A DNA stretch of 62,643 nucleotides from Rhodanobacteraceae bacterium (GTDB lineage: Bacteria > Pseudomonadota > Gammaproteobacteria > Xanthomonadales > SZUA-5). Numbering within the stretch: the stretch's first letter is position 1; the number at the start of each line of letters is the position of its first letter. Under the pieces are notes generated by a model. That model made no database searches. It saw only the letters and a list, made by a program, of their open reading frames with translations, and was not told the origin of the DNA. The DNA lies in NCBI GenBank assembly GCA_043754435.1, contig JAYUUS010000020.1, positions 1-62,643 on the forward strand, read 5' to 3'. Position numbers and translations under genes: made by a program. Below, piece by piece: positions 1-55,158 of the stretch.

Positions 1-254
1 CTCGCGGTGCGGCGATGACGCGTCAAGCGTTCTGGTATTTGCTCAAACGCTATGCCCTGCTTGCCGGCGTGCGCACGCTATCGCCGCACGTATTGCGGCA
101 TTCTTTCGCCACGCATTTACTGAATCATGGCGCGGACTTACGGGTTGTGCAGCTTCTGCTTGGGCATGTGGATTTGTCCACCACGCAAATTTATACCTAT
201 ATCGCGCGGGAGAATTTGAAGAAGCTGCACGCGCTGCATCACCCGCGGGGGTGA
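1..254 (+). CDS. xerD: Tyrosine recombinase XerD, C-terminal part (5' end outside window)
   Basis: The frame is open from the window edge. [36 protein letters not shown] matches the conserved XerD catalytic C-terminus. Confidence 0.85.
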
Positions 255-257
255 GGG

Positions 258-572
258 CTATGCTGCATGCTTAAATTTTGCCATGAATTTAAGTTTTGGC
301 TGTAAACCAGCGCGTGCTGCCAGCCGCACCAACATATCCAAGCTGAAAACGTTGATTTTCCCGCGCTTTAGATCCGAAACCCGCGCCTGGGTCAAGCCTA
401 ATAATTTTGCTGCGGCCACTTGGGTCAAACCGCTTTGGGTGAGCCATTCACGCATTCCCATTAACGCTTCGGCACGGATAGTCATTTCCGCCGCTTTGTC
501 TGCCTCGTACAAGTCATAGAAGACGCCACGAGGGTCGCCTGGAATACCGGGAAGTTGCTTCTCAATGGTCAT
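258..572 (-). CDS. XRE-family HTH antitoxin (HigA-like)
   Basis: 104 aa with HTH segment LTQVAAAKLLGLTQARVSDLKRGK. It lies 3 bp downstream of a small toxin-like ORF. Confidence 0.7.
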   Translation of the reverse strand: MTIEKQLPGIPGDPRGVFYDLYEADKAAEMTIRAEALMGMREWLTQSGLTQVAAAKLLGLTQARVSDLKRGKINVFSLDMLVRLAARAGLQPKLKFMAKFKHAA

Positions 573-575
573 TAG

Positions 576-893
576 TTAGGCCTTAATTTCAAGGAGCCGA
601 CTTTTGGCGACTCGCAAATCTTGCAGTGAGGTTTGTTGTGAATTCTTTTGGAATGCGTGCAGTACATAAATCGCTTCAGCACGTCGGGCGTAATAAATAA
701 CTCGAAAAGCACCTGTCGTATCACGAACTCTGATTTCCTCCACACCTTTTGCGACGGTCTGCATCGGCTTCCAATCATCAGGGCGTTTGCCTTGTTGAAG
801 ATAGAACAACTGCAGGCCGATTTCGCTCTGGATCGCATCCGGGAACCCTCGAAGGTCCGCCCGGCTACTGCCAAGCCATTGGACGTTTTTCAT
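576..893 (-). CDS. RelE/HigB-superfamily toxin (phage Gp49-like)
   Basis: 105 aa. The core AFRVIYYARRAEAIYVLHAFQK is typical of Gp49/HigB-type toxins. The toxin-first gene order matches higBA. Confidence 0.65.
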   Translation of the reverse strand: MKNVQWLGSSRADLRGFPDAIQSEIGLQLFYLQQGKRPDDWKPMQTVAKGVEEIRVRDTTGAFRVIYYARRAEAIYVLHAFQKNSQQTSLQDLRVAKSRLLEIKA

Positions 894-923
894 GAGTCAT
901 GATATGCAGATAACCGCATAATA

Positions 924-1919
924 TCAAGGCGATTTTTCGCGTCTTTCAACTATGGCGTCTTCAACTGTGGCGTCTTCACCTGTGGCGTCTTCAATTAGTC
1001 TAAACCCAAAAAACCGCCCCAGTAGCTGCTCAACAATCACCCCACTCGCCCGTAACGGCACCGCCGCCTGATTTGCCTGCAGCCTGCCCGCCAAACTCGC
1101 CAAAAAAATCGCGATTTTGCCGCGCGCGGCAGCAGAAAATACGACTTCGACTTGCGCATACGTTGCACAGGCTTCGCTTATCATATTGACCGAGTCGGGT
1201 GTGACAATAATTCTAGCGGCGCTGCTAAGCCACGCTTGATAGGGGTTTTCGCCATCCTCAGCACTCGTCCAAACGCGAGCGCCTGAGGCACGAATCAGCG
1301 CTAAAAATTCGGGCGGTGTGCGGCGTGAGGCGCTGATGCAAAGGGCTTTGGCATCAAGCCTTTGCAGCAAATGTGCAAATTGCGCGGCTGTGTAGGGCGC
1401 GTTGCGGGTAGGCGCGCCAACTAATAGCAAGGTGTTTGCGGATCCCACTTGATCGGCTTGAGCGCGCCCTGCGGCTAGCCAGGCATCGTCAACATCGTTG
1501 AGTGCGCCGATCATGGCAAGCACATTCGGGGCGCTTAAACGATCATGCTCTGGGCACACAATCGCATCAAAACGGGCCGGGTCGCAGCGCGGCGCTAAAA
1601 TTTGCACCGTGCGCACCGCTGGCCGCGCGCGTTTGAGCGCGTCGAGCGCAATTGCGCCAGCGCGTCCACAGCCAATAGCGAATGTGCAATCTAGTGAATC
1701 CGCCAAATCGGGCATGGGCGTTAGATTGAGCGCAGCAAAGCGGGCACGGCGAAATCGCGGCGCAAAGGCGCGCTCCAGCGCGTTCAATTTGACGACAAAT
1801 TCGCGGCTTTGCAGGCCCAAACCGCGCGCAAGCACACGCGCCTGCTTGACATTACCGGCGGCACCGTCGGTTAAAATCCAGCAGTTCAAATTTCCACTCC
1901 GCTCAATCGTCATTGGCAC
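924..1919 (-). CDS. ELM1/DUF1022-family protein (putative glycosyltransferase-like)
   Basis: 331 aa. The N-terminus NCWILTDGAAGNVKQARVLARGLGL and overall layout resemble the ELM1 family. The C-terminus carries EDAT-type pentapeptide repeats. Confidence 0.55.
   Translation of the reverse strand: MPMTIERSGNLNCWILTDGAAGNVKQARVLARGLGLQSREFVVKLNALERAFAPRFRRARFAALNLTPMPDLADSLDCTFAIGCGRAGAIALDALKRARPAVRTVQILAPRCDPARFDAIVCPEHDRLSAPNVLAMIGALNDVDDAWLAAGRAQADQVGSANTLLLVGAPTRNAPYTAAQFAHLLQRLDAKALCISASRRTPPEFLALIRASGARVWTSAEDGENPYQAWLSSAARIIVTPDSVNMISEACATYAQVEVVFSAAARGKIAIFLASLAGRLQANQAAVPLRASGVIVEQLLGRFFGFRLIEDATGEDATVEDAIVERREKSP
951..995. repeat. Three tandem 15-bp units (tRtggcgtcttcaMY) inside the 3' end of the ELM1-like gene
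   Basis: Read directly: tatggcgtcttcaac / tgtggcgtcttcacc / tgtggcgtcttcaat. The units are in frame (15 bp, 5 codons). Confidence 0.9.
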
Positions 1920-2023
1920 ATTCCAGCCGCAACGGCGTATCCTGCGCGCTCAGCACAACGATTGCCGACCTCGCGGAAACGCGAATGCGGGCTCAAGTGC
2001 GACTGATAAATAAGTGAGAAATC

Positions 2024-5841: not shown

Positions 5842-6537
5842 ATGCCACGTCTACATAAAGAACGCCACCTAGTTTCACGCATAGGCTGGCTGCGCGCCGC
5901 AGTGCTGGGGGCTAATGACGGCATTGTTTCCACCGCCAGCTTGATTCTAGGTGTTGCGGCAGCGTCTGCAGCGCGTGCCGATATTCTGGTGGCGGGCATT
6001 GCCGGATTAGTGGCGGGTGCGATGTCAATGGCGGCGGGCGAATACGTGTCGGTCAGTTCGCAATCCGATACTGAGCAAGCCGACTTAGCGCGGGAAAGCG
6101 CTGAGTTGGCAAGTCAGCCCGAGCATGAGCGCGAAGAATTGGCGCATATTTATGTTAAACGCGGCGTCGAAATTGGCTTGGCGCGGCAAGTGGCCGAGCA
6201 GCTGATGGCGAAAGATGCACTTGCCGCACATGCACACGATGAGCTGGGTATTTCAGATTTCAGCACCGCCCGGCCTATTCAAGCGGCGTTGACTTCCGCC
6301 GCGACCTTTTCCATCGGTGCCGCGATGCCGCTGATTTTGGTACTGGCGGCACCCGTTAAATCCCTAACCATTATGGTGTCGCTGGGTTCGCTCATGTTTC
6401 TGGCGTTGCTGGGTGCTGTGGGTGCGCGCGTGGGTGGCGCAAACGTTATGCGCGCTACGATTAGAGTCACGTTTTGGGGTGCGTTTGCAATGGCGCTGAC
6501 GGCGGGAATCGGTGCTTTGGTGGGTAAGGCGGTGTGA
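5842..6537 (+). CDS. VIT1/CCC1-family iron/manganese transporter
   Basis: 231 aa. WLRAAVLGANDGIVSTASLILGVAAA is followed by an acidic loop and C-terminal TM helices. Confidence 0.8.
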   Translation: MPRLHKERHLVSRIGWLRAAVLGANDGIVSTASLILGVAAASAARADILVAGIAGLVAGAMSMAAGEYVSVSSQSDTEQADLARESAELASQPEHEREELAHIYVKRGVEIGLARQVAEQLMAKDALAAHAHDELGISDFSTARPIQAALTSAATFSIGAAMPLILVLAAPVKSLTIMVSLGSLMFLALLGAVGARVGGANVMRATIRVTFWGAFAMALTAGIGALVGKAV

Positions 6538-6548
6538 GCTGCGCTGAG

Positions 6549-8048
6549 CTATTTTAGCTCTAAAACCAGATCCTGATCCGCCTGCATGAGTTTACGTACC
6601 GTTTCTATCCTGGGCTTACAGCTGTAGCAGCCATATTCAAGCTGGTATTGTTGGCCACGAAATGCAGCCACTTTTAACTGCCTAGTGCTGCTGCTACTGG
6701 TGCTTACCGAATATCCTATGCCAACACATCGTGGCGACACGTTTACCTCACCATCGTTTTTCTGCGCATGCGTGAACTCCAAGTTCACCCGCGACGATTC
6801 TGGAATTTCTGCCAGAACCACGGAGTGACCCACCGGAATGTCGTGCTCATTTGCGAGCGCACCCGCGCCGATACGCCAACGCACAGGAATTTTCTCAGTG
6901 CGCAGTAATTCGCATGTGATGTTATAGGGCCATATTGGGGGCGCATAGGATTTCACTACCCAATGCAGTTGATAGCGCCCAGGCACGATCTCGCTGCCAT
7001 AGCGCTCATCAAGTTTGTCTAATTCATCCGCATCTATATTGGAGTGCTGCGATGCAGCCTGATTCGGCTCGGCCAAATTGGACTCTGGCGCATCAATGCG
7101 CAGCCATTCTAGTTCGCCCAATAGGTTTATCGGTGTGCCAGCAGCGGTGATTGGCACCAAAGTAATTTTCGCCGTAGGCTGATAGCGCATATACACGCGT
7201 GCACTGGTGCCAGCGACCAAATCGAGCTCGCAGTTCCGCTTTTCATGCTCGGTGGAACAGGCGGGTTGATATCCTGGCAACTCTGGCCAAAGCAAGCGGT
7301 AATGTCCAGCGGGCAAATCGAGTGGAATGCCTGACGGTGTTACGCGAACGGTTCTAATGGGCTTTGCGATGGTAATCGCCTCAATCGTAAGCGAAACTTC
7401 TGCGGATGCTTTAGCGGTCGCGCCCGCTAGAGCGAACGAAAGTGTCAGACTTGCAGGTGCCAATTTGTCGTTGGCTAGCTGGCGCACAAACTGCACCAGA
7501 TAGGCGTTTTCGGGTGCTGCAAGCTGATAGATCGGATTAGTACAAGCGCCCTGCGCATACCAAATACGCTGCGTCCAGGTCGTAGGAATTTGATGAGTTG
7601 GCTGGACAGCTTCGGGATCAAGCGGAACCAAGCGCGCTTCCCAGGTCGCCTTTGGTTCGGCACGCGCAAAAAACAGAATCGAGTCGTTGACATGCAGAGC
7701 ATCGGGGATAGCGGTAATGTAATAGCGATCCTGAATTTGCTTGGTCGTTGGCGCACGTAGATAGCGCGTTACCGCGACTTCCACCAGTTGGGACGACGTC
7801 CAGTCCATCCGAGCTGTGTCACCTAAGCTGACTACTTTGGCCTCTGCGACGATCTCTGCTGCGCCAAATTCCTCTCGCGTCTGGGCATCGAATCGCTCTC
7901 GCATTTGGGCATCAATTTGCTGTCGCAGCTGGGGATCCATTTTCTGTATCACTTCAGGTGGCACGCTGACGGCACATTCGAGCGCCCATGCGCCGCTTGA
8001 CTGCAAAGTAAGTGCAATCAGACCAAAAACCGACGCAAATGATTTCAT
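6549..8048 (-). CDS. Hypothetical secreted protein (no family recognised)
   Basis: 499-aa uninterrupted ORF. It has an N-terminal signal peptide MKSFASVFGLIALTLQSSGAWA and no motif I can assign. Confidence 0.55.
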   Translation of the reverse strand: MKSFASVFGLIALTLQSSGAWALECAVSVPPEVIQKMDPQLRQQIDAQMRERFDAQTREEFGAAEIVAEAKVVSLGDTARMDWTSSQLVEVAVTRYLRAPTTKQIQDRYYITAIPDALHVNDSILFFARAEPKATWEARLVPLDPEAVQPTHQIPTTWTQRIWYAQGACTNPIYQLAAPENAYLVQFVRQLANDKLAPASLTLSFALAGATAKASAEVSLTIEAITIAKPIRTVRVTPSGIPLDLPAGHYRLLWPELPGYQPACSTEHEKRNCELDLVAGTSARVYMRYQPTAKITLVPITAAGTPINLLGELEWLRIDAPESNLAEPNQAASQHSNIDADELDKLDERYGSEIVPGRYQLHWVVKSYAPPIWPYNITCELLRTEKIPVRWRIGAGALANEHDIPVGHSVVLAEIPESSRVNLEFTHAQKNDGEVNVSPRCVGIGYSVSTSSSSTRQLKVAAFRGQQYQLEYGCYSCKPRIETVRKLMQADQDLVLELK

Positions 8049-9058: not shown

Positions 9059-9901
9059 CTACTGAGTCCAGCGGCCTTCGCGTTGGGTCAGATTTCCTTT
9101 GCTGGTCAGCTCCGTGCCAAACACGGTTGCTTTGATCTGCACTTCACCTGGCTTTGCCAAGTCGGTTACTTTCACCGAACCCAAAATCCCATCAAGGTCA
9201 AAATCATAGGCTTTTAAAACCTTTTTGAAGCCGCCCAGGCACACGCCCACTTTGTCCATAGCCTGCTCAAAGCTTAGCGCTTTCACGTCTTCTGGGGTTT
9301 TTAAGTTGATCGAGTTCGCCGCATCGACCAGTGCGGTTACCGCGTTGCGCGCACGTTTGGGGTCGGCGAAATCGGTTTTGCTGGCCCAAGTCTGGATCGC
9401 GGTGATGGCTTTGGTAGCAGACTCTTTTTCCTCGGCACTAACTGAGCTGTTGGCCACTTGCATCTGCAGCGCGCCTGCGCCCATCGCAATGTAGCCAGGT
9501 AGCTGGTTTTTGTATTCGGCTAACTTCGGCTCAATTTCTTTCATAATCGAATCAACCGCGCCCGCTGCGGTCAAGCGCCCAAAAGACTCGGTGAATTGGC
9601 GGCGATCATCGGCACTGACGGGCTGCTTTTTCATGTCAGCGAATTTAGTCTGCATTTCCGCGAAGTCGGTTTTGCTTGAAACCAACTCAATCAAATGCCG
9701 CACATCATTTTGCTTGAGCGCATCGGCATAAGCGTTCATCGCGCCAGCGGCGGTCAATTTGCCAGCATTTTGCTCAGCAATTGCTTTTTCGGCAAGCGTG
9801 GAATGACCAGCGCTGTCACTGCCACACGCGGTAAAAGCCAATAGGGAGAGGGCCGCAGTAGCACCCAATAGCGCGCTGCGTAAAGTGGACGAAATGATCA
9901 T
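9059..9901 (-). CDS. Hypothetical lipoprotein
   Basis: 280 aa with signal peptide and lipobox (LLAFTAC). The mature part is alanine/lysine-rich and helical-looking. Confidence 0.6.
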   Translation of the reverse strand: MIISSTLRSALLGATAALSLLAFTACGSDSAGHSTLAEKAIAEQNAGKLTAAGAMNAYADALKQNDVRHLIELVSSKTDFAEMQTKFADMKKQPVSADDRRQFTESFGRLTAAGAVDSIMKEIEPKLAEYKNQLPGYIAMGAGALQMQVANSSVSAEEKESATKAITAIQTWASKTDFADPKRARNAVTALVDAANSINLKTPEDVKALSFEQAMDKVGVCLGGFKKVLKAYDFDLDGILGSVKVTDLAKPGEVQIKATVFGTELTSKGNLTQREGRWTQ

Positions 9902-22551: not shown

Positions 22552-23769
22552 ATGCAAATGCACGCTATAATCTGCGACCCTGAGTATCTGATGGCGCCAC
22601 GAACCTACTCGCACGCACAATTACTGCTCTATGCCGGCCTGTTTACACACGGCTGCGTCGGGCTGTTGCTGTTTGTTCTAGGCGGCAGCGACGGCCCCAT
22701 GCAGATAGCGCTTGCCGCGCGCATCTTGCTTTGGCTTTGCTATTTTGCATTTGGCATCGCGTATTTTGTCTTGCTTTCGGAGCGTAGCGCCAATGCCAAG
22801 CTTACCAACATTATGTTGCTTTTGATTTGCAGCGCGATGTTGACGTTTGCTTACGTGATCGCGAATGGCTTGGCGGCGGTATTGCTGATGGTTTCGGCGG
22901 CCGCCATTGCTTACGCCTTGCCATTGCGCCCGGCGCTGGTTTGGATGATCGGGCAAAACCTAGCGTTTTTGCCTATTTTGGCAGCGCAGGGAAAATTGCC
23001 GCTCATTGAAGTAGTGCTCACGGTTGCGATGTATTTGGGCGTGTCCAGTTTCGTGTTTATGACCGCGTGGATCGGCAAGCGGCAAATGCAGGCACGCGAA
23101 CAGCTGCGTTTAGTCAATATGGAGCTGCGCGCCGCGCAAGCAATGCTCTCCGATACTGAACGCACCGCTGAGCGTTTGCGCATCTCGCGTGAGCTGCACG
23201 ATTTGGTGGGTCATCACTTAACGGCGCTCGCACTCAACTTAGAGGTCGCCACGCATTTGACCGAAGGCAAAGCGCTGACACACGTACAGCAAGCGCAGAG
23301 TATCTCCAAACTCTTGTTGAGCGATGTGCGCGAAGTGGTGAGCACGCTGCGTGAAGGCGACCCGATGCAGCTTGACCGCACGCTTAAAGCGATGATCGCT
23401 GACGTGCCTATGCCAAAAGTGCACTTGAATTTACCGCACCCGTTTATCTTAAGCGATGCACCGCGCGCGCACGCGCTGCTGCGCTTAGCGCAAGAAGTGC
23501 TGACCAATGCGATAAAACATTCGGGCGCACGCAACTTGTGGCTCACTTTTGCGCTGCGTGACGCAGGCGTCGAGGTTAGCGCGCATGATGACGGGCATGG
23601 CACGGATCAATTAAAAGATGGCAATGGCCTTGCTGGCATGCGCGAGCGTTTGGCGGCATTTGGCGGCACAATTGTGTGTGAAAGCGCGGTTGGAAGAGGC
23701 TTTAATGTTGCGGCATTTCTACCGCTGCGAACGCATGTGGCGCTCATAAATGGAACTGGAGAACGATAA
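22552..23769 (+). CDS. Sensor histidine kinase, HisKA_3 (DesK/LiaS/NarX-like) with polytopic N-terminal membrane domain
   Basis: Several N-terminal TM helices, H-box RISRELHDLVGHHLTAL, and an ATPase domain with NAIKHSGA and GNGLAGMRERL. Confidence 0.85.
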   Translation: MQMHAIICDPEYLMAPRTYSHAQLLLYAGLFTHGCVGLLLFVLGGSDGPMQIALAARILLWLCYFAFGIAYFVLLSERSANAKLTNIMLLLICSAMLTFAYVIANGLAAVLLMVSAAAIAYALPLRPALVWMIGQNLAFLPILAAQGKLPLIEVVLTVAMYLGVSSFVFMTAWIGKRQMQAREQLRLVNMELRAAQAMLSDTERTAERLRISRELHDLVGHHLTALALNLEVATHLTEGKALTHVQQAQSISKLLLSDVREVVSTLREGDPMQLDRTLKAMIADVPMPKVHLNLPHPFILSDAPRAHALLRLAQEVLTNAIKHSGARNLWLTFALRDAGVEVSAHDDGHGTDQLKDGNGLAGMRERLAAFGGTIVCESAVGRGFNVAAFLPLRTHVALINGTGER

Positions 23770-24461
23770 TGACAACGCAATTTAAGCCAACGCTCGCACA
23801 CGGCGCGGATGGTGCAGCGCGCATTCGCGTGTGTTTAGTGGATGACCAAATGCTCGTGCGTGCAGGAATTCGCAGCTTGCTAGAGCTTTCAGATTCGGTA
23901 GAAGTCGTCGCGGAAGCGGTCGATGCCGACAGTGCCATCGCCATTATTCCCCAAATTAAACCCGATGTTGTTTTGCTGGACATGCAAATGCCGGGCAAGC
24001 TTGGGCTGGAAGTATTGCGCGAACTGGGGCCCAAAGGACTCTTGCCGCCAACCGTAATTTTAACGACGTTCGACGACGATCAGTATGTTTTGGCCGGCCT
24101 TCAGGCGGGCGCGCGCGGCTATTTACTGAAAGATGTATCGTTAGATCAGCTGGTCGATGCGATTAAAGCCGTTGCGGCAGGCGGCACGTTAGTCAAGCCC
24201 GCAATTACCCAACGATTGCTTTCAGGTTTGAGCCATTTGGAAAACAAATTTGCGGCACTCGATGTGCCGGATCACTTGACCGAGCGTGAAACCGAGATTT
24301 TGCGACTCATGAGCGCAGGTTACAGTAACAAAGAAATTGCGCGTGCTTTGGATGTGGCGGAAGGCACCGTCAAAAATCATGTGTCTAACATTCTTTCTAA
24401 GCTTGGCGTGCGTGATCGCACACGCGCGGTGTTAAAGGCGTTTGAGTTGAAATTAGTGTAG
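23769..24461 (+). CDS. NarL/LuxR-family response regulator
   Basis: Receiver domain (VCLVDDQ...VVLLDMQMPG) plus LuxR HTH (LTERETEILRLMSAGYSNKEIARAL..TVKNHVSNILSKLGV). The start overlaps the kinase stop. Confidence 0.9.
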   Translation: MTTQFKPTLAHGADGAARIRVCLVDDQMLVRAGIRSLLELSDSVEVVAEAVDADSAIAIIPQIKPDVVLLDMQMPGKLGLEVLRELGPKGLLPPTVILTTFDDDQYVLAGLQAGARGYLLKDVSLDQLVDAIKAVAAGGTLVKPAITQRLLSGLSHLENKFAALDVPDHLTERETEILRLMSAGYSNKEIARALDVAEGTVKNHVSNILSKLGVRDRTRAVLKAFELKLV

Positions 24462-24475
24462 TGCGTTAATATCGC

Positions 24476-24504
24476 TTGAGCTTCCGGCAATTGAATTCTA
24501 TAAT
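24476..24504 (+). promoter_or_regulatory. Candidate sigma70 promoter for the lasso-like operon
   Basis: TTGAGC (24476-24481), a 17-nt spacer, then TATAAT (24499-24504). This lies 34 nt upstream of the precursor ATG, and AAGG sits 9 nt before that ATG. Confidence 0.4.
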
Positions 24505-24537
24505 CGCGATCAAGTTTACCCTTTAAGGCACACGCAG

Positions 24538-24699
24538 ATGAGCAAAATACAACCGAACACAACTGTTGAATCACAGGTTGTCGTGCGCGAGGTCTATCAA
24601 GTGCCCGCATTAACTCTTTTGGGCGACGTGCGGGATTTGACGCTCGGTGGTTCGCCCGGCTCGGGTGACTCGGGCAACCCAGCTGCTGAGCGCTTCTAA
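24538..24699 (+). CDS. Lasso-peptide-type RiPP precursor (53 aa, absent from the ORF track)
   Basis: My translation is MSKIQPNTTVESQVVVREVYQVPALTLLGDVRDLTL-GGSPGSGDSGNPAAERF. With cleavage after TL the leader has Tyr-17, Pro-14, Leu-12 and Thr-2. The core starts with Gly1 and has Asp8. The ORF sits directly upstream of B2 and B1 homologues. Confidence 0.75.
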   Translation: MSKIQPNTTVESQVVVREVYQVPALTLLGDVRDLTLGGSPGSGDSGNPAAERF

Positions 24700-24706
24700 A
24701 CGCTGA

Positions 24707-25633
24707 ATGGTCGATTTGCGACTCACTGTCGCCGGACATACCGAATGCTATAGCGGAACCCTTGCAGGCCAGCGAACCCTAAGTTCACTGGCCTGCTCGC
24801 ATTTGGAGACGAATGAAAATGCCGAGCTGATGCTGCATGATCCTGGCGATCAGCGGCACGGTAGCGATGAGTTCGAGAATTTTTCAGAACACGATGCCAG
24901 CAAGAGCGTGGAAATCCACGCTGAACTTGAAGCGAACCCGGTCACACTACGTGCAATCCATACTTTGCAGCGCAGTTATTTTACCGGCCCAGATGCTTCG
25001 TTTTGGGTAGACACTAACGGCAGCTGTGCGGCCTTAACACATTGTGCGCACAATCCAGTGCCTTGGCTATTTGGCCCGGTACTGATTTTAGCTTTGGCGC
25101 GTTTAGGCGTGTACTGTTTGCATGCCAGTGCTGCCTTGACAGCCAAGGGTGACGCAGCCACTGTTTTTGTAGGACATAGTGGCGCCGGTAAATCGAGTTT
25201 GGCGCGCGCGATATCTAAGCGGGTCGGCGCGCAGCGCTTGTGTGATGACATCACGCCAATTGCACTGCGCGCGGGCAAGCTGTACGTGCTGCCCCGCTTT
25301 CCACAATTAAAACTGAGCGCGGTGGATCAAAATTTGCCGGAGCAGGTGCCATTAAAACGCTTAGTCTTGTTAAATGCAGCGCAGACATGGCTTGCAAGCG
25401 AGCATCAAGCTTTAACGCAGCGCGAGTTGTTTGAAGCGTTGACACGTCACACGGTGGCTACCCGGCTTTACTCAGCTACAGATACGCGTATTTGGTGGCA
25501 AGTATTGCCGCAGATCATGGCGGCACTGAGCGATTCTTGCTCAATTCGGCCGGGTTTCGATGCACAAGCGCCCGAACGCGCTATGCTTGCCGCGCTTGAC
25601 GCTTTGGATGCCTTGGATAGTTTATGTGGTTGA
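24707..25633 (+). CDS. HPr-kinase-related (HprK-like) P-loop kinase
   Basis: 308 aa. LHASAALTAKGDAATVFVGHSGAGKSSLA resembles the HprK C-terminal domain P-loop. It starts 7 bp after the precursor stop and overlaps B2 by 10 bp. Confidence 0.65.
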   Translation: MVDLRLTVAGHTECYSGTLAGQRTLSSLACSHLETNENAELMLHDPGDQRHGSDEFENFSEHDASKSVEIHAELEANPVTLRAIHTLQRSYFTGPDASFWVDTNGSCAALTHCAHNPVPWLFGPVLILALARLGVYCLHASAALTAKGDAATVFVGHSGAGKSSLARAISKRVGAQRLCDDITPIALRAGKLYVLPRFPQLKLSAVDQNLPEQVPLKRLVLLNAAQTWLASEHQALTQRELFEALTRHTVATRLYSATDTRIWWQVLPQIMAALSDSCSIRPGFDAQAPERAMLAALDALDALDSLCG

Positions 25634-26067
25634 ATTTACCTTCACTGCTTTTGCTTGACCTGCGGGTACGCGGGCAACTGCGCCGGTTTGGATTCGCAGC
25701 TGCATTGACTGCGTTTTCCCAACCTAAGGCGAAGCCCAGCCAGAAGTTTGCGCCTGGGCCTGCGGAGCTTGCGTTCGCACAGTCCGCAGCGCTATGGCTG
25801 CGCCGTTTCGCAAATTTACCTAAACGGCTGCCGCGCTTTGGACGCTGGGTGAATCAAGTGCTCGGGCCAAGCGCCTGCTTGGATCAAGCGATCGCGTTGC
25901 GGGCGTTTTTGCATGCTAGAGGTCTGCCCGCTGAGCTAAAAATTGGGACACGGCGCGTAGCCGATCAAGGTTTTGCAGCGCATGCTTGGGTCGAGTTGGC
26001 GGGCATTGCGCTGGGTGAGTCGCTTGATATGAAGGCGCAACACATACAGTTTGAAGGCAAGCTGTGA
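25624..26067 (+). CDS. Lasso peptide biosynthesis B2 protein (transglutaminase-like Cys protease)
   Basis: 147 aa. SACLDQAIALRAFLHARGLPAELKIGTRR....FAAHAWVELAG matches the B2 Cys...His signature. Confidence 0.8.
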   Translation: MWLNLPSLLLLDLRVRGQLRRFGFAAALTAFSQPKAKPSQKFAPGPAELAFAQSAALWLRRFANLPKRLPRFGRWVNQVLGPSACLDQAIALRAFLHARGLPAELKIGTRRVADQGFAAHAWVELAGIALGESLDMKAQHIQFEGKL

Positions 26068-26324
26068 GCTACTGTTTAGCCGAGGGTGTGCTGACCCAAA
26101 AACTTGGGTCCCAAGTGGTGTTGATGCATGTCCTAAAAGGTCAATACTTTGAACTCAACGATACCGGTGCGATGGTGCTGGAGGCGATTTTGGCGGGTGC
26201 CGACGAAATTGCAACGACGGCCCAACTCAGTCAACGGTTCGATGTGGATCAGATCAGCACGCAAGCGGATGTCTTGGCGTTGATAAAAAATTTAATAGAC
26301 AGAGAGCTGCTGTCGTTGAAGTGA
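26064..26324 (+). CDS. PqqD-family RRE chaperone (lasso B1)
   Basis: 86 aa. ..VVLMHVLKGQYFELNDTGAMVLEAI..LSQRFDVD...DVLALIKNLIDRELL is PqqD-like. It overlaps B2 by 4 bp. Confidence 0.8.
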   Translation: MSYCLAEGVLTQKLGSQVVLMHVLKGQYFELNDTGAMVLEAILAGADEIATTAQLSQRFDVDQISTQADVLALIKNLIDRELLSLK

Positions 26325-26374
26325 AAGTGCCTGTCAAGTCGGATGAAAAATCCAGTGAAGTAACGGCGCGGCCA

Positions 26375-27040
26375 ATGAACGCGGCGTCACGAAAATTACT
26401 TTTTGAACGCTTTCAGGCAGCAAACCCTACGCCAAAAACGGAGCTTGAATATCAAAACCCGTTTGAACTTTTGATTGCCGTGATGTTGTCTGCGCAGGCC
26501 ACTGACGTTAGCGTCAATAAAGCCACACGCAAGCTTTATGCAGTGGCAAATACGCCCGAAGCTATTGTGGCGCTTGGCCTAGATCGACTGCGGGAGTACA
26601 TCAAAACGATTGGCCTGTATCAGAATAAAGCCAAAAATGTAGCCGCTACCTGCGCGCTACTGATTGCGAACCATCAAAGTCAGGTGCCACAGGATCGCGC
26701 GGCACTTGAAGCTTTGCCGGGCGTCGGTCGAAAAACTGCTAACGTCGTGCTCAATACCGCGTTTGACCAGCCAACAATGGCGGTGGACACGCATATTTTC
26801 AGGCTCGCCAACCGCATGGGTCTAGCGCCGGGGAGTAATGTGCTAAATGTGGAAAATGCGCTATTAAAACGTATTCCAAAAGCTTATCTGCAAGATGCGC
26901 ATCATTGGCTGATCTTGCACGGACGCTATATCTGTAAGGCGCGCGCGCCAGATTGCTCAGCTTGCTTCGTCAGAGATTTATGCGGTTGGCGCGGCAAAAA
27001 TGCGATGATCAAAATTTCTGCTACGAACGCAATCACTTGA
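26375..27040 (+). CDS. nth: Endonuclease III
   Basis: ELEYQNPFELLIAVMLSAQATD, HhH-GPD LPGVGRKTANVVL and a C-terminal 4Fe-4S cluster loop C..C..C. The start is set at the internal ATG at 26375. Confidence 0.92.
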   Translation: MNAASRKLLFERFQAANPTPKTELEYQNPFELLIAVMLSAQATDVSVNKATRKLYAVANTPEAIVALGLDRLREYIKTIGLYQNKAKNVAATCALLIANHQSQVPQDRAALEALPGVGRKTANVVLNTAFDQPTMAVDTHIFRLANRMGLAPGSNVLNVENALLKRIPKAYLQDAHHWLILHGRYICKARAPDCSACFVRDLCGWRGKNAMIKISATNAIT

Positions 27041-27055
27041 TGGAAACCCAATGCT

Positions 27056-27409
27056 ATGTATGAAGGCAAAGCGACCCCGCTACTGAGCCATCGAGATTTT
27101 GCGTTGCGCATGTTTTGGCATTTCACTTTAGCAAGCCTTTTTATTCTGATCTCCTTAGGCTTAGGAATGTGGGGATATCACGCTCTTGAGGCGCTGTCGT
27201 GGATGGATTCTTTTCTCAATGCCTCGATGTTACTCGGCGGCATGGGGCCGGTAGACCCACCCCATACGCCCGACGGCAAACTTTTCGCGGGGCTTTATGC
27301 GCTGTATTCGGGGCTCGCTTTTTTAATACTGGCGGGCGTTATTTTTACACCTGTGCTGCATCGAATACTGCATAAGTTTCACTGGGACGCGGATTCCGAC
27401 TCTAAATAA
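27056..27409 (+). CDS. Small two-TM membrane protein with ion-channel-like pore loop
   Basis: 117 aa with layout TM1, WMDSFLNASMLLGGMGPVDP, TM2. This resembles a minimal K-channel pore module, but the filter sequence is degenerate. Confidence 0.4.
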   Translation: MYEGKATPLLSHRDFALRMFWHFTLASLFILISLGLGMWGYHALEALSWMDSFLNASMLLGGMGPVDPPHTPDGKLFAGLYALYSGLAFLILAGVIFTPVLHRILHKFHWDADSDSK

Positions 27410-27421
27410 TTCGACGCCTTG

Positions 27422-29377
27422 TTATTCTTCGGATTTGGAACCGGAATGAGCACTAACTTTTTTCACATCGCCTATGCGAAAAAATTCCTCAACCTGCGCA
27501 ATTTGATCGGTGCGCTGCATCGCTGGCAGGCTTTGTAGAAACGTCTTACCGTAGGATTTGGTGTAAAGGCGCGGATCACACAGCATCAGCAGACCACGAT
27601 CCGTGACCGTGCGAATTAAGCGCCCAACGCCTTGCTTGAGTGCCAAAACGGCCTGCGGCAATTGATAATGGGCAAACGGGTTGCCGCCGCGCGCGCGAAT
27701 ATCTTCGAGTTTCGCTTCCAACACCGGATCACCAATTTGGCGAAAGGGCAGTTTGTCGATAATCACCACGCTCAACGCCTCGCCCGGCACATCCACGCCT
27801 TCCCAGAAACTTGCCGCACCCAACAAGATGCCGTTGCCGGATTTTTGAAACCCCGCAAGCAGCTGCCCGCGCGGTGCGCTACCCTGCACGAACAGCGGAA
27901 AGTGAAGGCGTGAGCTCAAGTATTCCGCTGCTTCTTTGAGCGCGCGGTGGCTGGTAAACAGCATAAATGCGCGCCCCCCGCTGGCTTGCAGCACCGGAAT
28001 CGCCGCCGTCAAAACCGCTTGCGTATAGCCTTCTTGGGTAGGATCAATGCCTAATTTGGGTATAAACAAAAGCGCTTGCTTAGCGTAGTCAAACGGGCTG
28101 TCTAACCGCAGCGTTTGGGCCTCAAAAGCGCCGGTTTCATGTTGAAAATGCTGGAAATCAGCGCCCACCGCCAAGGTTGCAGAGGTATAAATCCAGGCCG
28201 CCCCCGTCTTGGCGCGAAATTCACCGAGCGGGCCAGCGACGTCCAGCGGCGTCGCATTGAGGGCAAAGCCGGTGGCGAATAGCTCGTACCAACGCACTTC
28301 ATCTGGGGCATCAACAATAATGGTTTGCAGCCGCTGCAAGAGTTCCTCCGCGCGCGCTGAGCAGCTTTTCAAGCCATCGCTGCGTTCACTTTGTGTCGCT
28401 AGCACCGCTGCCAAGTCGCTTAACGCCTCAGTCATGCTCGTAAGCGCTGCCGCCACCGCAGGTTCCGCCAATACCGGCATCAGCGGCGCTTTCGCGGCAT
28501 ACGGATTTAGGCTCAAGCGAAAGTCTTTGAGCGTGCGCTCCAGCAACAGCGCCGGGTCGCGCACGCTCGCCATCGCGCCGGTGGCGACGGCGGCTTCGGT
28601 CGTGGCATCGCGGCTGAGCTCTAAAATCTGCCGATAACCAACCGTGGTCGAGAAAAAGCTGGTCGCCGCGTCCGCAATCTGGTGCGCTTCATCCAAGACA
28701 TACACTTGCGCACCGGGCAGAACTTCGCCAAAACCTTCGCGCCGCACCGCCATGTCGGAAAACAGCAAATGATGATTCACCACCACCAAATCCGCCGCCT
28801 GCGCGCGTCGGCGCGCTTTGACGACATAACAATCTTCCCAAAACGCGCATTCCACGCCTAAGCAATTTTCTGCGTTCGAGGTCACTAGCGGCCAAATCGC
28901 GGCGTCCTCAGCCAAGCCCGGAATTTCCGCACGATCACCGGATTTTGACTTCGGCGTCCATTCGCGCACCCGTTTGAGTTCGTTCAACAGTTCGCGCTGG
29001 GTAACGCCTTCTTTGATCGTGCGCTCCAGCCGATGCAGGCACACGTAATTCGCGCGGCCTTTCAAAAGCGCTAACTTGGCGTCATTCAAACCCAGCGTGC
29101 GCCGCACCTGCGGTAAATCCCGGTGAAATAGCTGATCCTGCAGCGCTTTAGTGCCGGTGGAAATAATGGTTTTTTTGCCCGACACTAGTGCTGGCACCAG
29201 ATACGCATAGGTTTTACCCGTGCCAGTGCCGGCCTCGGCAATCAGCTGCCCGCGCGTTTCGATGCAGTGCTCAATCGCCTGCGCCAACTCTTGCTGCGCC
29301 ACGCGCGGTCTAAAGCCATCAATACTTTGCGCGAACGGGCCGGTGGCACCCAGTAAGGCGAATGCGCGCGCGGTCAT
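27422..29377 (-). CDS. ATP-dependent DNA helicase, DinG/YoaA (XPD/Rad3) family
   Basis: AGTGTGKTYAYLVPAL (Walker A), VLDEAHQI (DEAH) and C-terminal helicase motifs. The start is set at ATG 29377 (MTARAF...). Confidence 0.85.
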   Translation of the reverse strand: MTARAFALLGATGPFAQSIDGFRPRVAQQELAQAIEHCIETRGQLIAEAGTGTGKTYAYLVPALVSGKKTIISTGTKALQDQLFHRDLPQVRRTLGLNDAKLALLKGRANYVCLHRLERTIKEGVTQRELLNELKRVREWTPKSKSGDRAEIPGLAEDAAIWPLVTSNAENCLGVECAFWEDCYVVKARRRAQAADLVVVNHHLLFSDMAVRREGFGEVLPGAQVYVLDEAHQIADAATSFFSTTVGYRQILELSRDATTEAAVATGAMASVRDPALLLERTLKDFRLSLNPYAAKAPLMPVLAEPAVAAALTSMTEALSDLAAVLATQSERSDGLKSCSARAEELLQRLQTIIVDAPDEVRWYELFATGFALNATPLDVAGPLGEFRAKTGAAWIYTSATLAVGADFQHFQHETGAFEAQTLRLDSPFDYAKQALLFIPKLGIDPTQEGYTQAVLTAAIPVLQASGGRAFMLFTSHRALKEAAEYLSSRLHFPLFVQGSAPRGQLLAGFQKSGNGILLGAASFWEGVDVPGEALSVVIIDKLPFRQIGDPVLEAKLEDIRARGGNPFAHYQLPQAVLALKQGVGRLIRTVTDRGLLMLCDPRLYTKSYGKTFLQSLPAMQRTDQIAQVEEFFRIGDVKKVSAHSGSKSEE

Positions 29378-29724
29378 GGTGGGGTATCGCTCGGTGTGAC
29401 AGCGTCCGCATTGCCGCTCTGGCGTTCTTCCAGCTGATGCCAAATGCGTAGAATCACGACAGCATCGGCGTGCATCGAATAGCGCACGACATAACTGCCA
29501 AAAGCCATATCGCGTAGCGAAAATTTGTTAGCAATGCCCAAACTTATGGAGCTTGATATTTTGGGCATCACCACGCCCATCTCAGGAAAGATCCGCAATT
29601 TCTCGATACGATCAACTAATTCCAAGCCAATACGCTTGGCTGCCACCGGATTTTTTTGGGAAATGAAGTGCCGTAATCGAATTAAATCGTCGCGCGCCTT
29701 TTCTGAATAGTTGAGCCGCTTCAT
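29374..29724 (-). CDS. RelE/ParE-family toxin
   Basis: 116 aa. ..ARDDLIRLRHFI...YVVRYSMHADAVVILRIWH is ParE-like. Its TGA overlaps the helicase ATG (ATGA). Confidence 0.7.
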   Translation of the reverse strand: MKRLNYSEKARDDLIRLRHFISQKNPVAAKRIGLELVDRIEKLRIFPEMGVVMPKISSSISLGIANKFSLRDMAFGSYVVRYSMHADAVVILRIWHQLEERQSGNADAVTPSDTPP

Positions 29725-29993
29725 TGCCCTACTTTTGGCGGCATAAGTTCATCGCTGCTGCCCCAAGATTGCAGCCATTGGTGCATTGCATCGCCTGAAA
29801 TAATGCGACCGGCTGCAACTGATTCCATCGCTTCTGTAGTATCGTCCCAGCGGCTTTGTAGCAATTTTTCGCGCTCAAGAAATTCCTTCAGTGCTTGATT
29901 GATTAACCAACTTTTGCTGCGCTGAAGTTTTTGCGCGGCATCAGACAGGGCATGATCAATTTCCGACGGTAATCGCACACTGGTGATGCTCAT
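29721..29993 (-). CDS. Ribbon-helix-helix (CopG/ParD-like) antitoxin
   Basis: 90 aa. MSITSVRLPSEIDHALSDAAQKLQRSKSWLINQALKEFLE is an RHH fold signature. It overlaps the toxin by 4 bp. Confidence 0.7.
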   Translation of the reverse strand: MSITSVRLPSEIDHALSDAAQKLQRSKSWLINQALKEFLEREKLLQSRWDDTTEAMESVAAGRIISGDAMHQWLQSWGSSDELMPPKVGQ

Positions 29994-30090: not shown

Positions 30091-30759
30091 TCATGAAAGA
30101 TTGAGCTGCGCCAAACGCTCCGGCGTACCGACATCCGTCCAAAATCCATCAAAACGCTCGCCAGTGACATTACCGAACGCCATCGCTTCGCGCAGCAGCG
30201 GGGCCAGCTTAAACGCGCCGCTAGGCGTACCGGACAAAAGTTTCGGGCTGTATACGCCAATGCCGGAAAACGTGAGCTTGTTCGGGCCGCAGGTGTAGAG
30301 CTTGCTCGCCGTCAGTACAAAATCCCCGTGTGGGTGGTGGTTCGGGTTCGCCACCATAACCAGATGCGCCAGCGCGTCATTCAGCATGCTCGGCAGACCC
30401 AGCAGACGGGCAAAATCAAAGTCAACGAAAATATCGCTATTCACAGCGATAAACGGCGCATCACCCAACAAGGGCAGCGCATGACGCATACCACCGCCGG
30501 TTTCCAAAGGAATTGCACCTTCCTCGCTGTAGCGAATACGCACGCCAAACTGCGCGCCATCGCCCAATGCGGCTTTAATTAAATCGCCCAAATAAGATAG
30601 GTTGATAACCAAATCCCGCATCTCAGCACGCGCCAACGCCTCAATGTGATGCACGATCAGCGGCTTGCCGTATACCTGCAGCAGGGCTTTAGGTGTGGTC
30701 AGGGTCAGCGGCCGCATACGCTCACCGATGCCGGCGGCAAATATCAGCGCTTTCATCAT
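30091..30759 (-). CDS. murU: N-acetylmuramate alpha-1-phosphate uridylyltransferase (MurU-like nucleotidyltransferase)
   Basis: MKALIFAAGIGERMRPLTLTTPKALL is a sugar nucleotidyltransferase N-terminus. The gene is coupled to an AmgK-like kinase. Confidence 0.75.
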   Translation of the reverse strand: MMKALIFAAGIGERMRPLTLTTPKALLQVYGKPLIVHHIEALARAEMRDLVINLSYLGDLIKAALGDGAQFGVRIRYSEEGAIPLETGGGMRHALPLLGDAPFIAVNSDIFVDFDFARLLGLPSMLNDALAHLVMVANPNHHPHGDFVLTASKLYTCGPNKLTFSGIGVYSPKLLSGTPSGAFKLAPLLREAMAFGNVTGERFDGFWTDVGTPERLAQLNLS

Positions 30760-31766
30760 TGCTCTCTAGCTTTAGCCAAATCAACACCATCAGTCCGCAG
30801 TTTTAGCCAACGCCCAAAGGCTTCTAGCTCAGGGTATTGCGCGCAAACGCTCAAGGTGTAGTGCAACACCAACGCCAAATCCGGCAAATAGCCGGGCTTG
30901 CCATCCCGGTAGTTCAGCCGCGCAAAGATACCCAACACTTTTAGGTGCCGCTGCACGCCCATCCAATCAAACCAGCGTCGAAATAGAGCAGATTCCGCGC
31001 GATGCAGGCCGGCCTCGCTACTTAAAATTCGATAGTGTTCTACCCAGCGCGCAACGTCGGCCTCGGGCCAGCTGATATAGCAATCGCGCAGCAGTGAAAC
31101 CAAATCATAGGTAATCGGCCCGCGCACCGCGTCTTGAAAATCAATAATTGCCAAGCGCCGCATTGCGGTGTCCGTGGGCTCAGCAAGCATCAAATTACGC
31201 GAATGAAAATCCCGGTGCACAAACACTTTCGGCTGCGTCAACGCCAAGTTGCGCAGCTGCATCATCGTGGCTTCAATGATGTCAAAGTCCTCACAGCTTG
31301 GGGTAATTCCTAAGTGTCGCTTGAGAAACCACTCGGGAAACAGCTCCATTTCAGCGTCCAAGCGCGGCGCATCATAGTTCGGCAAACCGGTAACATCCGC
31401 GTGCAGCTGCATTTGCAAAATCGCCGCCATTGCCGCTTGATAGTGAGGCTCTACGCGGGTCGCGTTTAACTCTGGCAACAGTGTGCGCGTGCCAAGATCG
31501 GGCAGCAGCAAAAAGCCTTGCGCTAAATCCTTTGCCAGCACCGTCGGCACCCGCAGTCCGGCCGCGTGCAGGCGCGCACTGATATCAATGAAGGGTGCGC
31601 AGTTTTCGAGCGACGGCGGCGCATCCATGACGATGTGGGTCGCATCGTTTTCATCCGTCACACGCCAATAGCTGCGAAAGCTTGCATCGCTGCTGGCAGG
31701 CGCTAGCTGTAAAGGGCTTGATAACGCGGTTTCAGCAAATAGGAGACGGGCGGCGGCTCGATCCAT
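30756..31766 (-). CDS. amgK: Anomeric MurNAc/GlcNAc kinase (AmgK-like aminoglycoside phosphotransferase fold)
   Basis: APH-fold motifs VFVHRDFHSRNLM and IIDFQDA. It overlaps murU by 4 bp. The start is set at ATG 31766. Confidence 0.75.
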   Translation of the reverse strand: MDRAAARLLFAETALSSPLQLAPASSDASFRSYWRVTDENDATHIVMDAPPSLENCAPFIDISARLHAAGLRVPTVLAKDLAQGFLLLPDLGTRTLLPELNATRVEPHYQAAMAAILQMQLHADVTGLPNYDAPRLDAEMELFPEWFLKRHLGITPSCEDFDIIEATMMQLRNLALTQPKVFVHRDFHSRNLMLAEPTDTAMRRLAIIDFQDAVRGPITYDLVSLLRDCYISWPEADVARWVEHYRILSSEAGLHRAESALFRRWFDWMGVQRHLKVLGIFARLNYRDGKPGYLPDLALVLHYTLSVCAQYPELEAFGRWLKLRTDGVDLAKAREQ

Positions 31767-31904
31767 AACAAATATATTTAACGGAATGAAAGTAAGAAGG
31801 TTAACGAAATTAAGGGGCAATTGCGAATGCCTCAGGAGCTAGATTGGCAAGCGCATTCCCGGCAATCCTGTGCTTAAATGCGCCACCTAACCTGAGATCC
31901 TAAA

Positions 31905-54870: not shown

Positions 54871-54904
54871 CGAACTTTTGCAGCTCGTGTGGTAATCTTG
54901 TCAG

Positions 54905-55099
54905 GCAAGCGGGAGAGACTGTCAAGGTCAAGCCCAGGCAGCGCCGAAGGAGCAACCGCCCCGGAAACTCTCAGGCAAAAGGACCGCTTGCAGCCCAAAT
55001 ACACGTTTTTTAGCGTGTGCTTGGAAAAAACTCTGGAAAATTGCGCGTTTAAGCACGCGCGTGCCGACGGGATAACGCTCTCAGGCAACACAGACAGAG
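54905..55099 (+). promoter_or_regulatory. Tandem glycine riboswitch (two aptamers) in the gcvP leader
   Basis: Aptamer 1 (54905-54991): gcaagcGGGAGAG...CGCCGAAGGAGCAA...CCGGAAACTCTCAGGCAAAAGGACcgcttgc. Aptamer 2 (55031-55099): CTCTGGAAAA...GCCGACGGGATAA..CTCTCAGGCAACACAGACAGAG. Confidence 0.85.
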
Positions 55100-55158
55100 G
55101 GGGCATGAAATATCGGCTTGTTCAAAGCTGGCCACCTCATGCCCAACTCAGGATTTTT

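Follow-up and report, generated by a model that had tools for sequence, protein, structure and literature searches.

How is a precursor peptide of the lasso family processed in an operon that encodes no lasso cyclase, and what is finally made from it? This question is raised by contig JAYUUS010000020.1 of a Rhodanobacteraceae bacterium (GenBank assembly GCA_043754435.1), the whole 62,643 nucleotides of which were analysed and are referred to as the window in the following. On the plus strand a gene of 53 codons, here designated A, codes for a peptide with a lasso-type leader and core and is followed by genes for an HprK/ScmC-like kinase (K), a leader peptidase (B2), a recognition element (RRE) for peptides that are synthesized ribosomally and modified after translation (RiPPs; B1) and endonuclease III (nth). 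Judged from the sequences, the locus appears to be a derivative operon that contains a precursor of the lasso family and has no cyclase. The conserved absence of the cyclase gene (C) is the really interesting part of this architecture, which is neither an accident of assembly nor a wreck and is fixed in the core chromosome of an uncultured Lysobacterales lineage.

Precursor gene and operon partners

In the initial annotation A had been described as a lasso-type precursor gene missing from the track of open reading frames (ORFs). Rereading of the sequence confirmed the frame at 24538-24699 (ATG at 24538, TAA at 24697-24699) and its translation, MSKIQPNTTVESQVVVREVYQVPALTLLGDVRDLTLGGSPGSGDSGNPAAERF, exactly as claimed, and the absence from the track fits a length below the default threshold of the ORF tool (60 amino acids). 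With cleavage after Leu36 the peptide divides into the leader MSKIQPNTTVESQVVVREVYQVPALTLLGDVRDLTL and the core GGSPGSGDSGNPAAERF, and on this basis the numbering proposed for the leader (Tyr-17, Pro-14, Leu-12 and Thr-2) and for the core (Gly1, Asp8, Arg16 and Phe17) is correct. Residues 20-39 match the NCBIfam model NF033521 (lasso_leader_L3) with 25.6 bits at a cutoff of 19 (E 8.4e-6). The model stands for a "lasso RiPP family leader peptide-containing protein", and by its match to the leader model the precursor is to be assigned to the lasso-peptide family.

A protein search yielded 33 clusters of precursor homologues with lengths of 52-76 amino acids. Their alignment contains 20 invariant columns, located at Y20, P23, L25 and in the block L28-S45 (LGDVRDLTL of the leader, joined to GGSPGSGDS of the core), and Y20, P23, L25 and T35 of the leader are invariant across 34 sequences. 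The core block GGSPGSGDSG is invariant or nearly so, whereas the N-terminal part of the leader and the C-terminal tail vary among the homologues. Core position 8 is Asp in all members except the one at locus L015, which has Glu8, and Gly1 is kept even in divergent members. The C-termini of the family read ERF, QRF or QQF, and no clade member examined ends in Ser. The invariant residues are encoded by varied synonymous codons (five codons for Leu, TCN as well as AGY for Ser, varying codons for Gly and Pro), and the ratio of nonsynonymous to synonymous substitution rates (dN/dS, Nei-Gojobori) of the ORF is 0.07-0.13 at near-saturated dS. A is a genuine conserved gene under purifying selection at the protein level.

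The run of operon genes starts 7 nucleotides after the stop codon of A, and these genes overlap or nearly abut (Table 1). For K, local searches of Pfam and NCBIfam gave weak P-loop and HprK_rel_A matches alone, and relatives of K carry the precomputed Pfam assignment PF27840 (ScmC), an HprK-like family on which nothing relevant was found in the literature. In an alignment of 16-19 kinase homologues with identities down to 26%, the motifs LH139AS, G156xSGxGK162S, D180D181 and FPQLK do not vary. Among these residues H139, K162, D180 and D181, invariant in 19 homologues, correspond to the His-Lys-Asp-Asp set that is essential by mutagenesis in lasso-tailoring HprK-like kinases (reviewed in PMC9266682). 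A confident AlphaFold model of K (pLDDT 86.6, pTM 0.85) found its best fold matches in the Protein Data Bank (PDB) among phosphoenolpyruvate carboxykinases. The P-loop fold class of these enzymes also includes the catalytic domain of HprK/P.

B2 matches NF033537 (lasso_biosyn_B2) with 56.8 bits (cutoff 33) and PF13471 (Transglut_core3) with 55.3 bits, and its Cys85 (SAC-LDQ) and His120 (HAW) are invariant; a sequence search of B2 against the PDB returned spurious antibody matches only. B1 is recognized by PF05402 (47.6 bits, cutoff 23.4) and reaches 59.2 bits with NF033530 (lasso_PqqD_Strm), which is under the cutoff of 70. The assignment of nth is based on TIGR01083 (269.6 bits, cutoff 211.7). 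Within the cyclase-less lineage, the pair L001/L009 without B2 included, K has a dN/dS of 0.09-0.20, B2 of about 0.1 and B1 of 0.10-0.18, which is comparable to the 0.07-0.12 of nth. From their sequences, K, B2 and B1 look functional.

Related loci with and without a cyclase

A scan of reference genomes with a precursor profile detected 12 loci, all of them in metagenome-assembled genomes (MAGs) of uncultured Lysobacterales, Rhodanobacteraceae or Ahniellaceae, and contigs of further relatives were added through exact-protein matches. The loci fall into two types. Type II comprises the cyclase-less operons of the order A-K-(B2)-B1-nth, found in at least 10 diverged loci with a guanine-cytosine (GC) content of 50-56%; the operon in the window has 53%. 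B2 is present in the window, in the strains L028-L031 (98% identical), L005/L014, L023/L024, L003/L004 and L016. It is cleanly absent from L001/L010 (around 9805-9864), L009 (around 6497-6538), L020 and the P0051 contig, where a few to about 50 nucleotides separate K from B1. The dN/dS values of A, K and B1 in the loci without B2 are 0.07-0.2, and since these three genes are under purifying selection where B2 is missing, A, K and B1 seem to form the conserved functional core.

The order from A to nth is always kept in type II, even with kinases that are 37-45% identical to that of the window. Upstream, most loci have a sensor kinase and a response regulator, whereas L003 has an ABC/Rce1-like pair and L020 a hydrolase, and the downstream genes vary as well. 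By contrast, nth directly follows B1 in all cyclase-less loci (L001, L003, L005, L009, L016, L020, L023 and L028), even where the other flanks differ; this position may reflect a functional coupling or a mere dependence of nth on the operon promoter. The initial annotation had made its proposal depend on the conservation of the ORF upstream of homologous kinase/B2/B1 genes in related genomes, and this conservation is decisively borne out.

In type I a homologous precursor gene lies directly beside a gene for an Asn_synthase protein of 560-600 amino acids, at a GC content of 61-72%. The precursor genes are situated 50-110 nucleotides downstream of their dedicated cyclase gene; in L015 A is convergent with C. 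C and A alone are present in L008, L012/L027, L013 and L025, the order C-A-methyltransferase-K-NTP_transf_5 is found in L026 and C-A-K-B1-ThrE in L017-19. In a far relative, L021/22, the classical set is complete (NTP_transf-B2, B1, ..., C, A, K). No B2 gene lies within reach in any type I locus, and B1 occurs in L017 only. Hidden B1 or B2 genes were sought among the neighbours of the C-A loci, where unrelated genes (haem peroxidase, glucose dehydrogenase, methyltransferase) were found instead.

The precursors of type I share with the one in the window the leader block LGDVRDLTL, the ring region G-G/A-S-x-G-x-x-D/E-S-G and near-identical cores, e.g. GGSPGTGDSGDPGTQQF in L025. Their loci are unlike that of the window in having a dedicated cyclase, mostly without K, B2 and B1 nearby, and in not being located next to nth. 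Across both types the cores begin with GGSPG[ST]GDSG, GGSAGTGDSG, GGSDGTGDSG, GGTDGTGDSG, GASPGTGDSG, GGSPGRGDSG or GASQGVPESG, the last one being the variant with Glu8. Ser or Thr at position 3 and Ser9 are conserved throughout the clade, with Thr at position 9 in L021/22. A metagenome scan with a kinase profile led, for the 10 loci listed, to canonical C-(A)-K clusters of distant relationship or to ScmC contexts of another kind (e.g. L036).

Two observations concern the surroundings of the C-A loci. In L025 (9338-9892, minus strand) and L027 (52-615, minus strand) a divergently transcribed gene for a BLH/PTP-type phosphatase is located directly upstream of the cyclase gene, an intriguing arrangement in view of the kinase that goes along with this peptide family. 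Just after the C-A pair of L012 (2528-2818, minus strand) a translation reading ...GSVGDSYDNA was noticed, presumably a fragment of an IS3-family transposase, and this suggests that C-A modules sit in mobile or rearranged contexts.

In the window itself no Asn_synthase domain was detected in the operon or among the ORFs of at least 450 amino acids, and tblastn searches with the cyclases of L017 and L015 found nothing in the 62.6 kb. An ORF of 499 amino acids (6549-8048, minus strand) has no Pfam match at E<=1e-5, and the type I cyclases do not match it by tblastn. Likewise, no cyclase gene is present within 10 kb on either side (less on short contigs) of the orthologous operons L001, L003, L005, L009, L016, L020, L023, L028 and the P0051 contig. 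The description of A as a lasso-type precursor therefore stands as regards the family, B1, B2 and the cyclase-linked homologues, and it does not extend to a cyclase, which is absent from the operon and from the 62.6 kb; the initial annotation alluded to this gap and nevertheless named a lasso precursor in its title. Since this absence also holds for the orthologous operons, the closure of an 8-membered macrolactam that had been suggested for Gly1 and Asp8 is hypothetical in this organism. Arg16 and Phe17, which had been suggested as plug residues, are candidates for such a role.

Possible fates of the core peptide

The reading which we favour, tentatively and with a probability judged to be close to even yet somewhat short of it, is that the operon represents a domesticated derivative from which the cyclase was lost and whose product is a linear, Ser-phosphorylated peptide of 17 residues, freed from its leader. 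B1 would bind the leader through the YxxPxL motif, and K would phosphorylate a conserved serine of the core, for which Ser3 and Ser9 are candidates because the peptide has no C-terminal Ser. B2, acting with the B1-bound leader, would then cleave after Leu36, which has Thr at -2, and the 17-mer GGSPGSGDSGNPAAERF would be released and stay linear, because no cyclase acts on it. Each of these biochemical steps is inferred, as are the phosphorylated position and the lack of a cyclase gene in the remainder of the genome. According to this reading the operon is chromosomal, vertically inherited and headed by A in an uncultured low-GC lineage of Rhodanobacteraceae-like Lysobacterales, in which the cyclase, found together with this precursor family in sister lineages, was lost. 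The simplest history would be that different genes were deleted from an ancestor with the complete set C-A-K-B2-B1, since the relatives display the partial states C-A-K-B1, C-A-x-K, C-A, A-K-B2-B1 and A-K-B1.

Several points weigh against a linear product. Every lasso hallmark is retained in the core, which starts with Gly1, has an invariant Asp8, is 17 residues long and ends in bulky Arg-Phe. Only 2 of 17 positions distinguish the type I core of L025 from the type II core of L009 (GGSPGSGDSGDPGTQRF), and this suggests that their mature structures are alike. B1 and B2 are missing in the vicinity of most cyclase-linked loci, and yet the recognition motifs for them are kept, so that trans-acting partners seem to exist in the clade. 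This genome is covered by 62.6 kb, and the absence of the cyclase refers to the window and the orthologous loci; a lone cyclase elsewhere in these genomes is conceivable. The cyclase subfamily comprises about 35 full-length clusters at 50% identity in an exhaustive hmmsearch, and the composition of some members is compatible with genomes of lower GC content. Among these low-GC-like cyclases are P0287 (on a 63.7-kb contig), P0159 (84.7 kb), P0168 (87.6 kb) and P0147. The cyclase P0084 is encoded at 249-1976 (plus strand) on the contig L032, which has 57% GC and ends 24 nucleotides after the gene. Moreover, there is no ABC exporter and no immunity gene in the operon, which bears on the destination of the peptide. 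As the peptide ends in Phe, K cannot act on a C-terminal Ser like the characterized lasso kinases, and the modification of an internal Ser by kinases of this clade is a hypothesis.

An argument from the rarity of the cyclase subfamily was dropped: a word-indexed search had indicated 9 clusters where the exhaustive profile search found about 35, and counts from word-indexed searches are unfit as evidence of rarity. On L032 a further ORF (1-246, plus strand) is located upstream of the cyclase gene and ends 2 nucleotides before its start, the GC content of the contig being intermediate between the two locus types; other members of the 90% cluster of this cyclase are found on contigs of up to 63.7 kb.

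The main rival is a split lasso cluster, in keeping with the lasso product proposed in the initial annotation; we regard it as possible, if on balance rather improbable. Here a cyclase encoded at another locus would, once the leader has been removed by B1 and B2, join Gly1 to Asp8 around the tail, giving a class II lasso peptide of 17 residues, possibly phosphorylated at Ser by K. The core is essentially that of the cyclase-linked relatives, with conserved Gly1 and Asp/Glu8 including the exchange of Asp for Glu in L015, and the retention of YxxPxL and Thr-2 in cyclase-linked loci that are mostly without B1 and B2 implies components acting in trans. The cyclase family is broad in Xanthomonadales, from which the source names of its members derive, and includes the low-GC-like members and L032. 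A domesticated chromosomal system may also be under less pressure to stay clustered. Against a split cluster stands the lack of a cyclase in the 62.6 kb and in about 10 orthologous neighbourhoods. All of the cyclases with readable downstream sequence (8/8) have their own adjacent precursor, and a second precursor copy is present in none of five cyclase-less MAGs (reference-genome scan; its search pattern LGDVRDLTL is invariant in both locus types). The cyclase-linked loci have 61-72% GC as opposed to 50-56% in the cyclase-less lineage, and B2 has been lost in several members. Furthermore, C and A alone can suffice in a related family: psmC-A-D alone still yields the pseudomycoidin lasso, the leader being removed by host proteases (PMC6993621), and because of this self-sufficiency the C-A loci without B genes do not require a split cluster.

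It appears very unlikely that K itself replaces the cyclase by converting the Asp8 carboxylate into an acyl-phosphate, with which the amine of Gly1, once set free by B2, would close the 8-membered macrolactam. The circumstantial point in its favour is that K is the sole ATP-using enzyme in every cyclase-less locus, where Gly1 and Asp8 are invariant. Yet L017, L026 and L021/22 encode a normal cyclase alongside K, which argues for tailoring as its ancestral role. We know of no precedent for the activation of a carboxylate by a P-loop HprK-type fold in RiPPs, and the characterized homologues are Ser O-kinases (PMC9266682, PMC13381572).

The chance is smaller still that the operon is a non-functional relic, i.e. 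a decaying lasso cluster which survives because nth depends on its promoter. The cyclase is missing, B2 is missing in some relatives and nth is translationally coupled to B1, as would be expected of such a remnant; on the other hand, A, K, B2 and B1 have dN/dS values of 0.07-0.2 at a synonymous divergence that has reached saturation, a peptide block of 19 residues is invariant in more than 30 sequences despite free synonymous change, all frames are intact and the catalytic residues are conserved. With low dN/dS values and intact frames and catalytic residues, the system is maintained by selection without a local cyclase. Finally, the idea that the functional product is the antisense ORF of 120 amino acids which overlaps the precursor gene (24377-24739, minus strand) or a cis-regulatory RNA for the downstream operon has a negligible probability and is effectively refuted, since stops break up the antisense frame in the majority of relatives but the sense frame in none, and the codon-position substitution pattern fits plus-strand coding, and in addition no Rfam family maps to the locus and no terminator or attenuator is found in the 7 nucleotides between A and K.

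If the favoured linear phosphopeptide is indeed the product, the operon would be a second, independent case of a transition from a lasso peptide to a linear phosphopeptide, in a phylum different from that of the linear polyphosphorylated peptides (LPPs) of Bacillota described below. It would be a proteobacterial, B2-dependent LPP analogue, co-transcribed with the gene for endonuclease III, and a clean system for studying the roles of B1, B2 and K without a cyclase and the purpose of the peptide. If, in turn, a cyclase acts in trans, the locus would belong to a lasso pathway whose genes are dispersed and whose 17-residue core, rich in Gly and Ser, is new, and cluster-based mining would under-count the lasso class. 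If K replaces the cyclase, lasso-type or branched-cyclic peptides would be formed without a homologue of Asn synthetase. In any case lasso peptides are defined and mined by the co-occurrence of B and C, and an operon with A, K, B2 and B1 and without C will likely escape mining procedures that need both.

Chromosomal setting and comparison with known systems

The sequence TTGAGC-17-TATAAT, put forward as a promoter in the initial annotation, is present in the intergenic region between the response regulator gene and A. It is the sole sigma70-like match within 24300-27600, and the count of such matches is not above chance (1 found, 2.7 expected). Both hexamers are kept in the five orthologous intergenic regions of L028, L001, L009, L011 and L005, where the rest of the spacer diverges; this phylogenetic footprint speaks in favour of a real promoter. 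The AAGG sequence proposed as Shine-Dalgarno element was likewise found ahead of the ATG. The genes for sensor kinase, response regulator and A are syntenic in most low-GC relatives, not in L003/L004 or L020, and it is a possibility that the two-component pair regulates the precursor operon. The small orf117 gene after nth is conserved only in the closest relatives L001, L009 and L028.

Table 1. Features of the precursor operon and its upstream region (positions in the window)
Feature	Position	Strand	Remarks
HisKA_3 sensor kinase	22552-23769	+	directly upstream, pair with response regulator
NarL/LuxR-type response regulator	23769-24461	+	between sensor kinase and precursor
Candidate sigma70 promoter of the operon	24476-24504	+	TTGAGC, 17 nt, TATAAT; conserved hexamers, putative function
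Weak Shine-Dalgarno-like AAGG	24526-24529	+	8 nt before ATG; AGAG or AGGA there in relatives
Leader of precursor A	24538-24645	+	residues 1-36; Y20-x-x-P23-x-L25, L28GDVRDLTL36, Thr at -2
Core peptide GGSPGSGDSGNPAAERF and stop codon	24646-24699	+	17 aa; Gly1, Ser3, Ser6, Asp8, Ser9, Arg16, Phe17
K, HprK/ScmC-like P-loop kinase, 308 aa	24707-25633	+	weak local matches; relatives PF27840
B2, transglutaminase-like lasso leader peptidase, 147 aa	25624-26067	+	overlaps end of K by 10 nt
B1, PqqD-family RRE, 86 aa	26064-26324	+	4-nt overlap with B2
nth, endonuclease III	26321-27040	+	start overlaps B1 stop by 4 nt (26321-26324)
orf117, small protein	27056-27409	+	possible last operon gene; weak cytochrome-b561-like match, 24.1 bits, below cutoff

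The operon sits in the core chromosome and not on an island. The GC content at third codon positions is 0.53-0.61 for A, K, B2 and B1 and 0.50-0.63 for the neighbouring genes nth, response regulator and sensor kinase, and the genes farther away in the window include minCDE, a GNAT gene, yoaA, a parE/ribbon-helix-helix pair, an APH-kinase/NTP-transferase pair, ATP synthase genes, gyrB and gcvP. Downstream of yoaA the ParE toxin and its ribbon-helix-helix antitoxin are encoded at 29374-29724 and 29721-29993 (minus strand). The genes for an NTP_transferase (PF00483, 30091-30759) and an APH-family kinase (30756-31820), both on the minus strand, overlap; they are unrelated to the NTP-transferase of LPP type, and we take them to be a pair resembling the amgK/murU pair of cell-wall recycling. 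Upstream of gcvP tandem glycine riboswitch aptamers (RF00504) were found at 54900-54996 and 55023-55107 (plus strand; 69 and 40 bits). The mechanically assigned GTG start of gcvP at 54889 overlaps the riboswitches; since the Pfam GDC-P match sets in only at residue 107, the true start probably lies farther downstream.

Of the features of the lasso class, the leader motif, a core with Gly1 and Asp8 and the adjacent B1 and B2 genes are present, whereas the cyclase is not, and because this defining feature at the enzyme level fails, the locus is not classed as a lasso biosynthetic cluster. Short class II lasso peptides such as anantin (17 amino acids), sungsanpin and chaxapeptin are comparable in their ring of eight residues closed between Gly1 and Asp8, their length of 15-17 residues and their aromatic C-terminal residues; they differ in being of actinobacterial origin and having hydrophobic rings. 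To our knowledge there is no counterpart of the Gly/Ser/Pro-rich ring GGSPGSGD with the tail NPAAERF, and we know of no characterized peptide with the core GGSPGSGDSGNPAAERF. Literature searches on characterized peptides with this core and on lasso peptides from Xanthomonadales genera gave nothing relevant.

With the kinase-associated class II lasso clusters of paeninodin and pseudomycoidin type the operon shares the [Y/W]xxPx[L/V/I] leader motif, Thr at -2, the split B1 and B2 proteins and the HprK-like kinase with its His-Lys-Asp-Asp set (PMC9266682, PMC6993621), and the gene order C-A-K is seen in the relatives L017, L021/22 and L033. In contrast to these clusters neither a cyclase gene C nor an ABC exporter gene D is present in the operon or elsewhere in the window, and the precursor ends in Phe instead of the conserved, phosphorylated C-terminal Ser. 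Further differences are the gammaproteobacterial host, the junction of the operon with the housekeeping gene nth and its vertical inheritance. The C-terminal Ser and the cyclase as features of the paeninodin type are thus lacking, and so are most of the features of gene content of the LPPs.

In the lasso-derived LPPs (Popov et al., Nat Commun 2026) the YxxP leader is bound by a discrete RRE, and Ser3 of the core is polyphosphorylated by an HprK-like kinase; there is no cyclase, and the product is linear (PMC13381572). Their precursors, 35-200 amino acids long, follow the consensus YxxPxVLxHQxIxFETxxS and are highly variable towards the C-terminus, and their further genes code for an SpI/SipW-like leader peptidase (LppS), an NTP-transferase (LppN) and an MsbA-like exporter (LppD). 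LPPs and paeninodins are stated to be restricted to Bacillota, and Proteobacteria are not mentioned (PMC13381572). The window and the orthologous loci resemble these systems in the combination of an RRE, an HprK-like kinase and a YxxP-leader precursor without a cyclase as well as in the conserved Ser or Thr at core position 3. They differ in that a canonical B2 is kept instead of an SpI peptidase, and no signal peptidase, PF14907-type NTP-transferase or ABC exporter is encoded among the operon genes K, B2, B1, nth and orf117. The leader sequence, YQVPALTLLGDVRDLTL, does not follow the LPP consensus. Unlike the LPPs, the precursors described here carry a short, lasso-like and almost invariant core of 17 residues, are encoded at a site of the core chromosome upstream of nth and have their relatives exclusively in MAGs of Lysobacterales.

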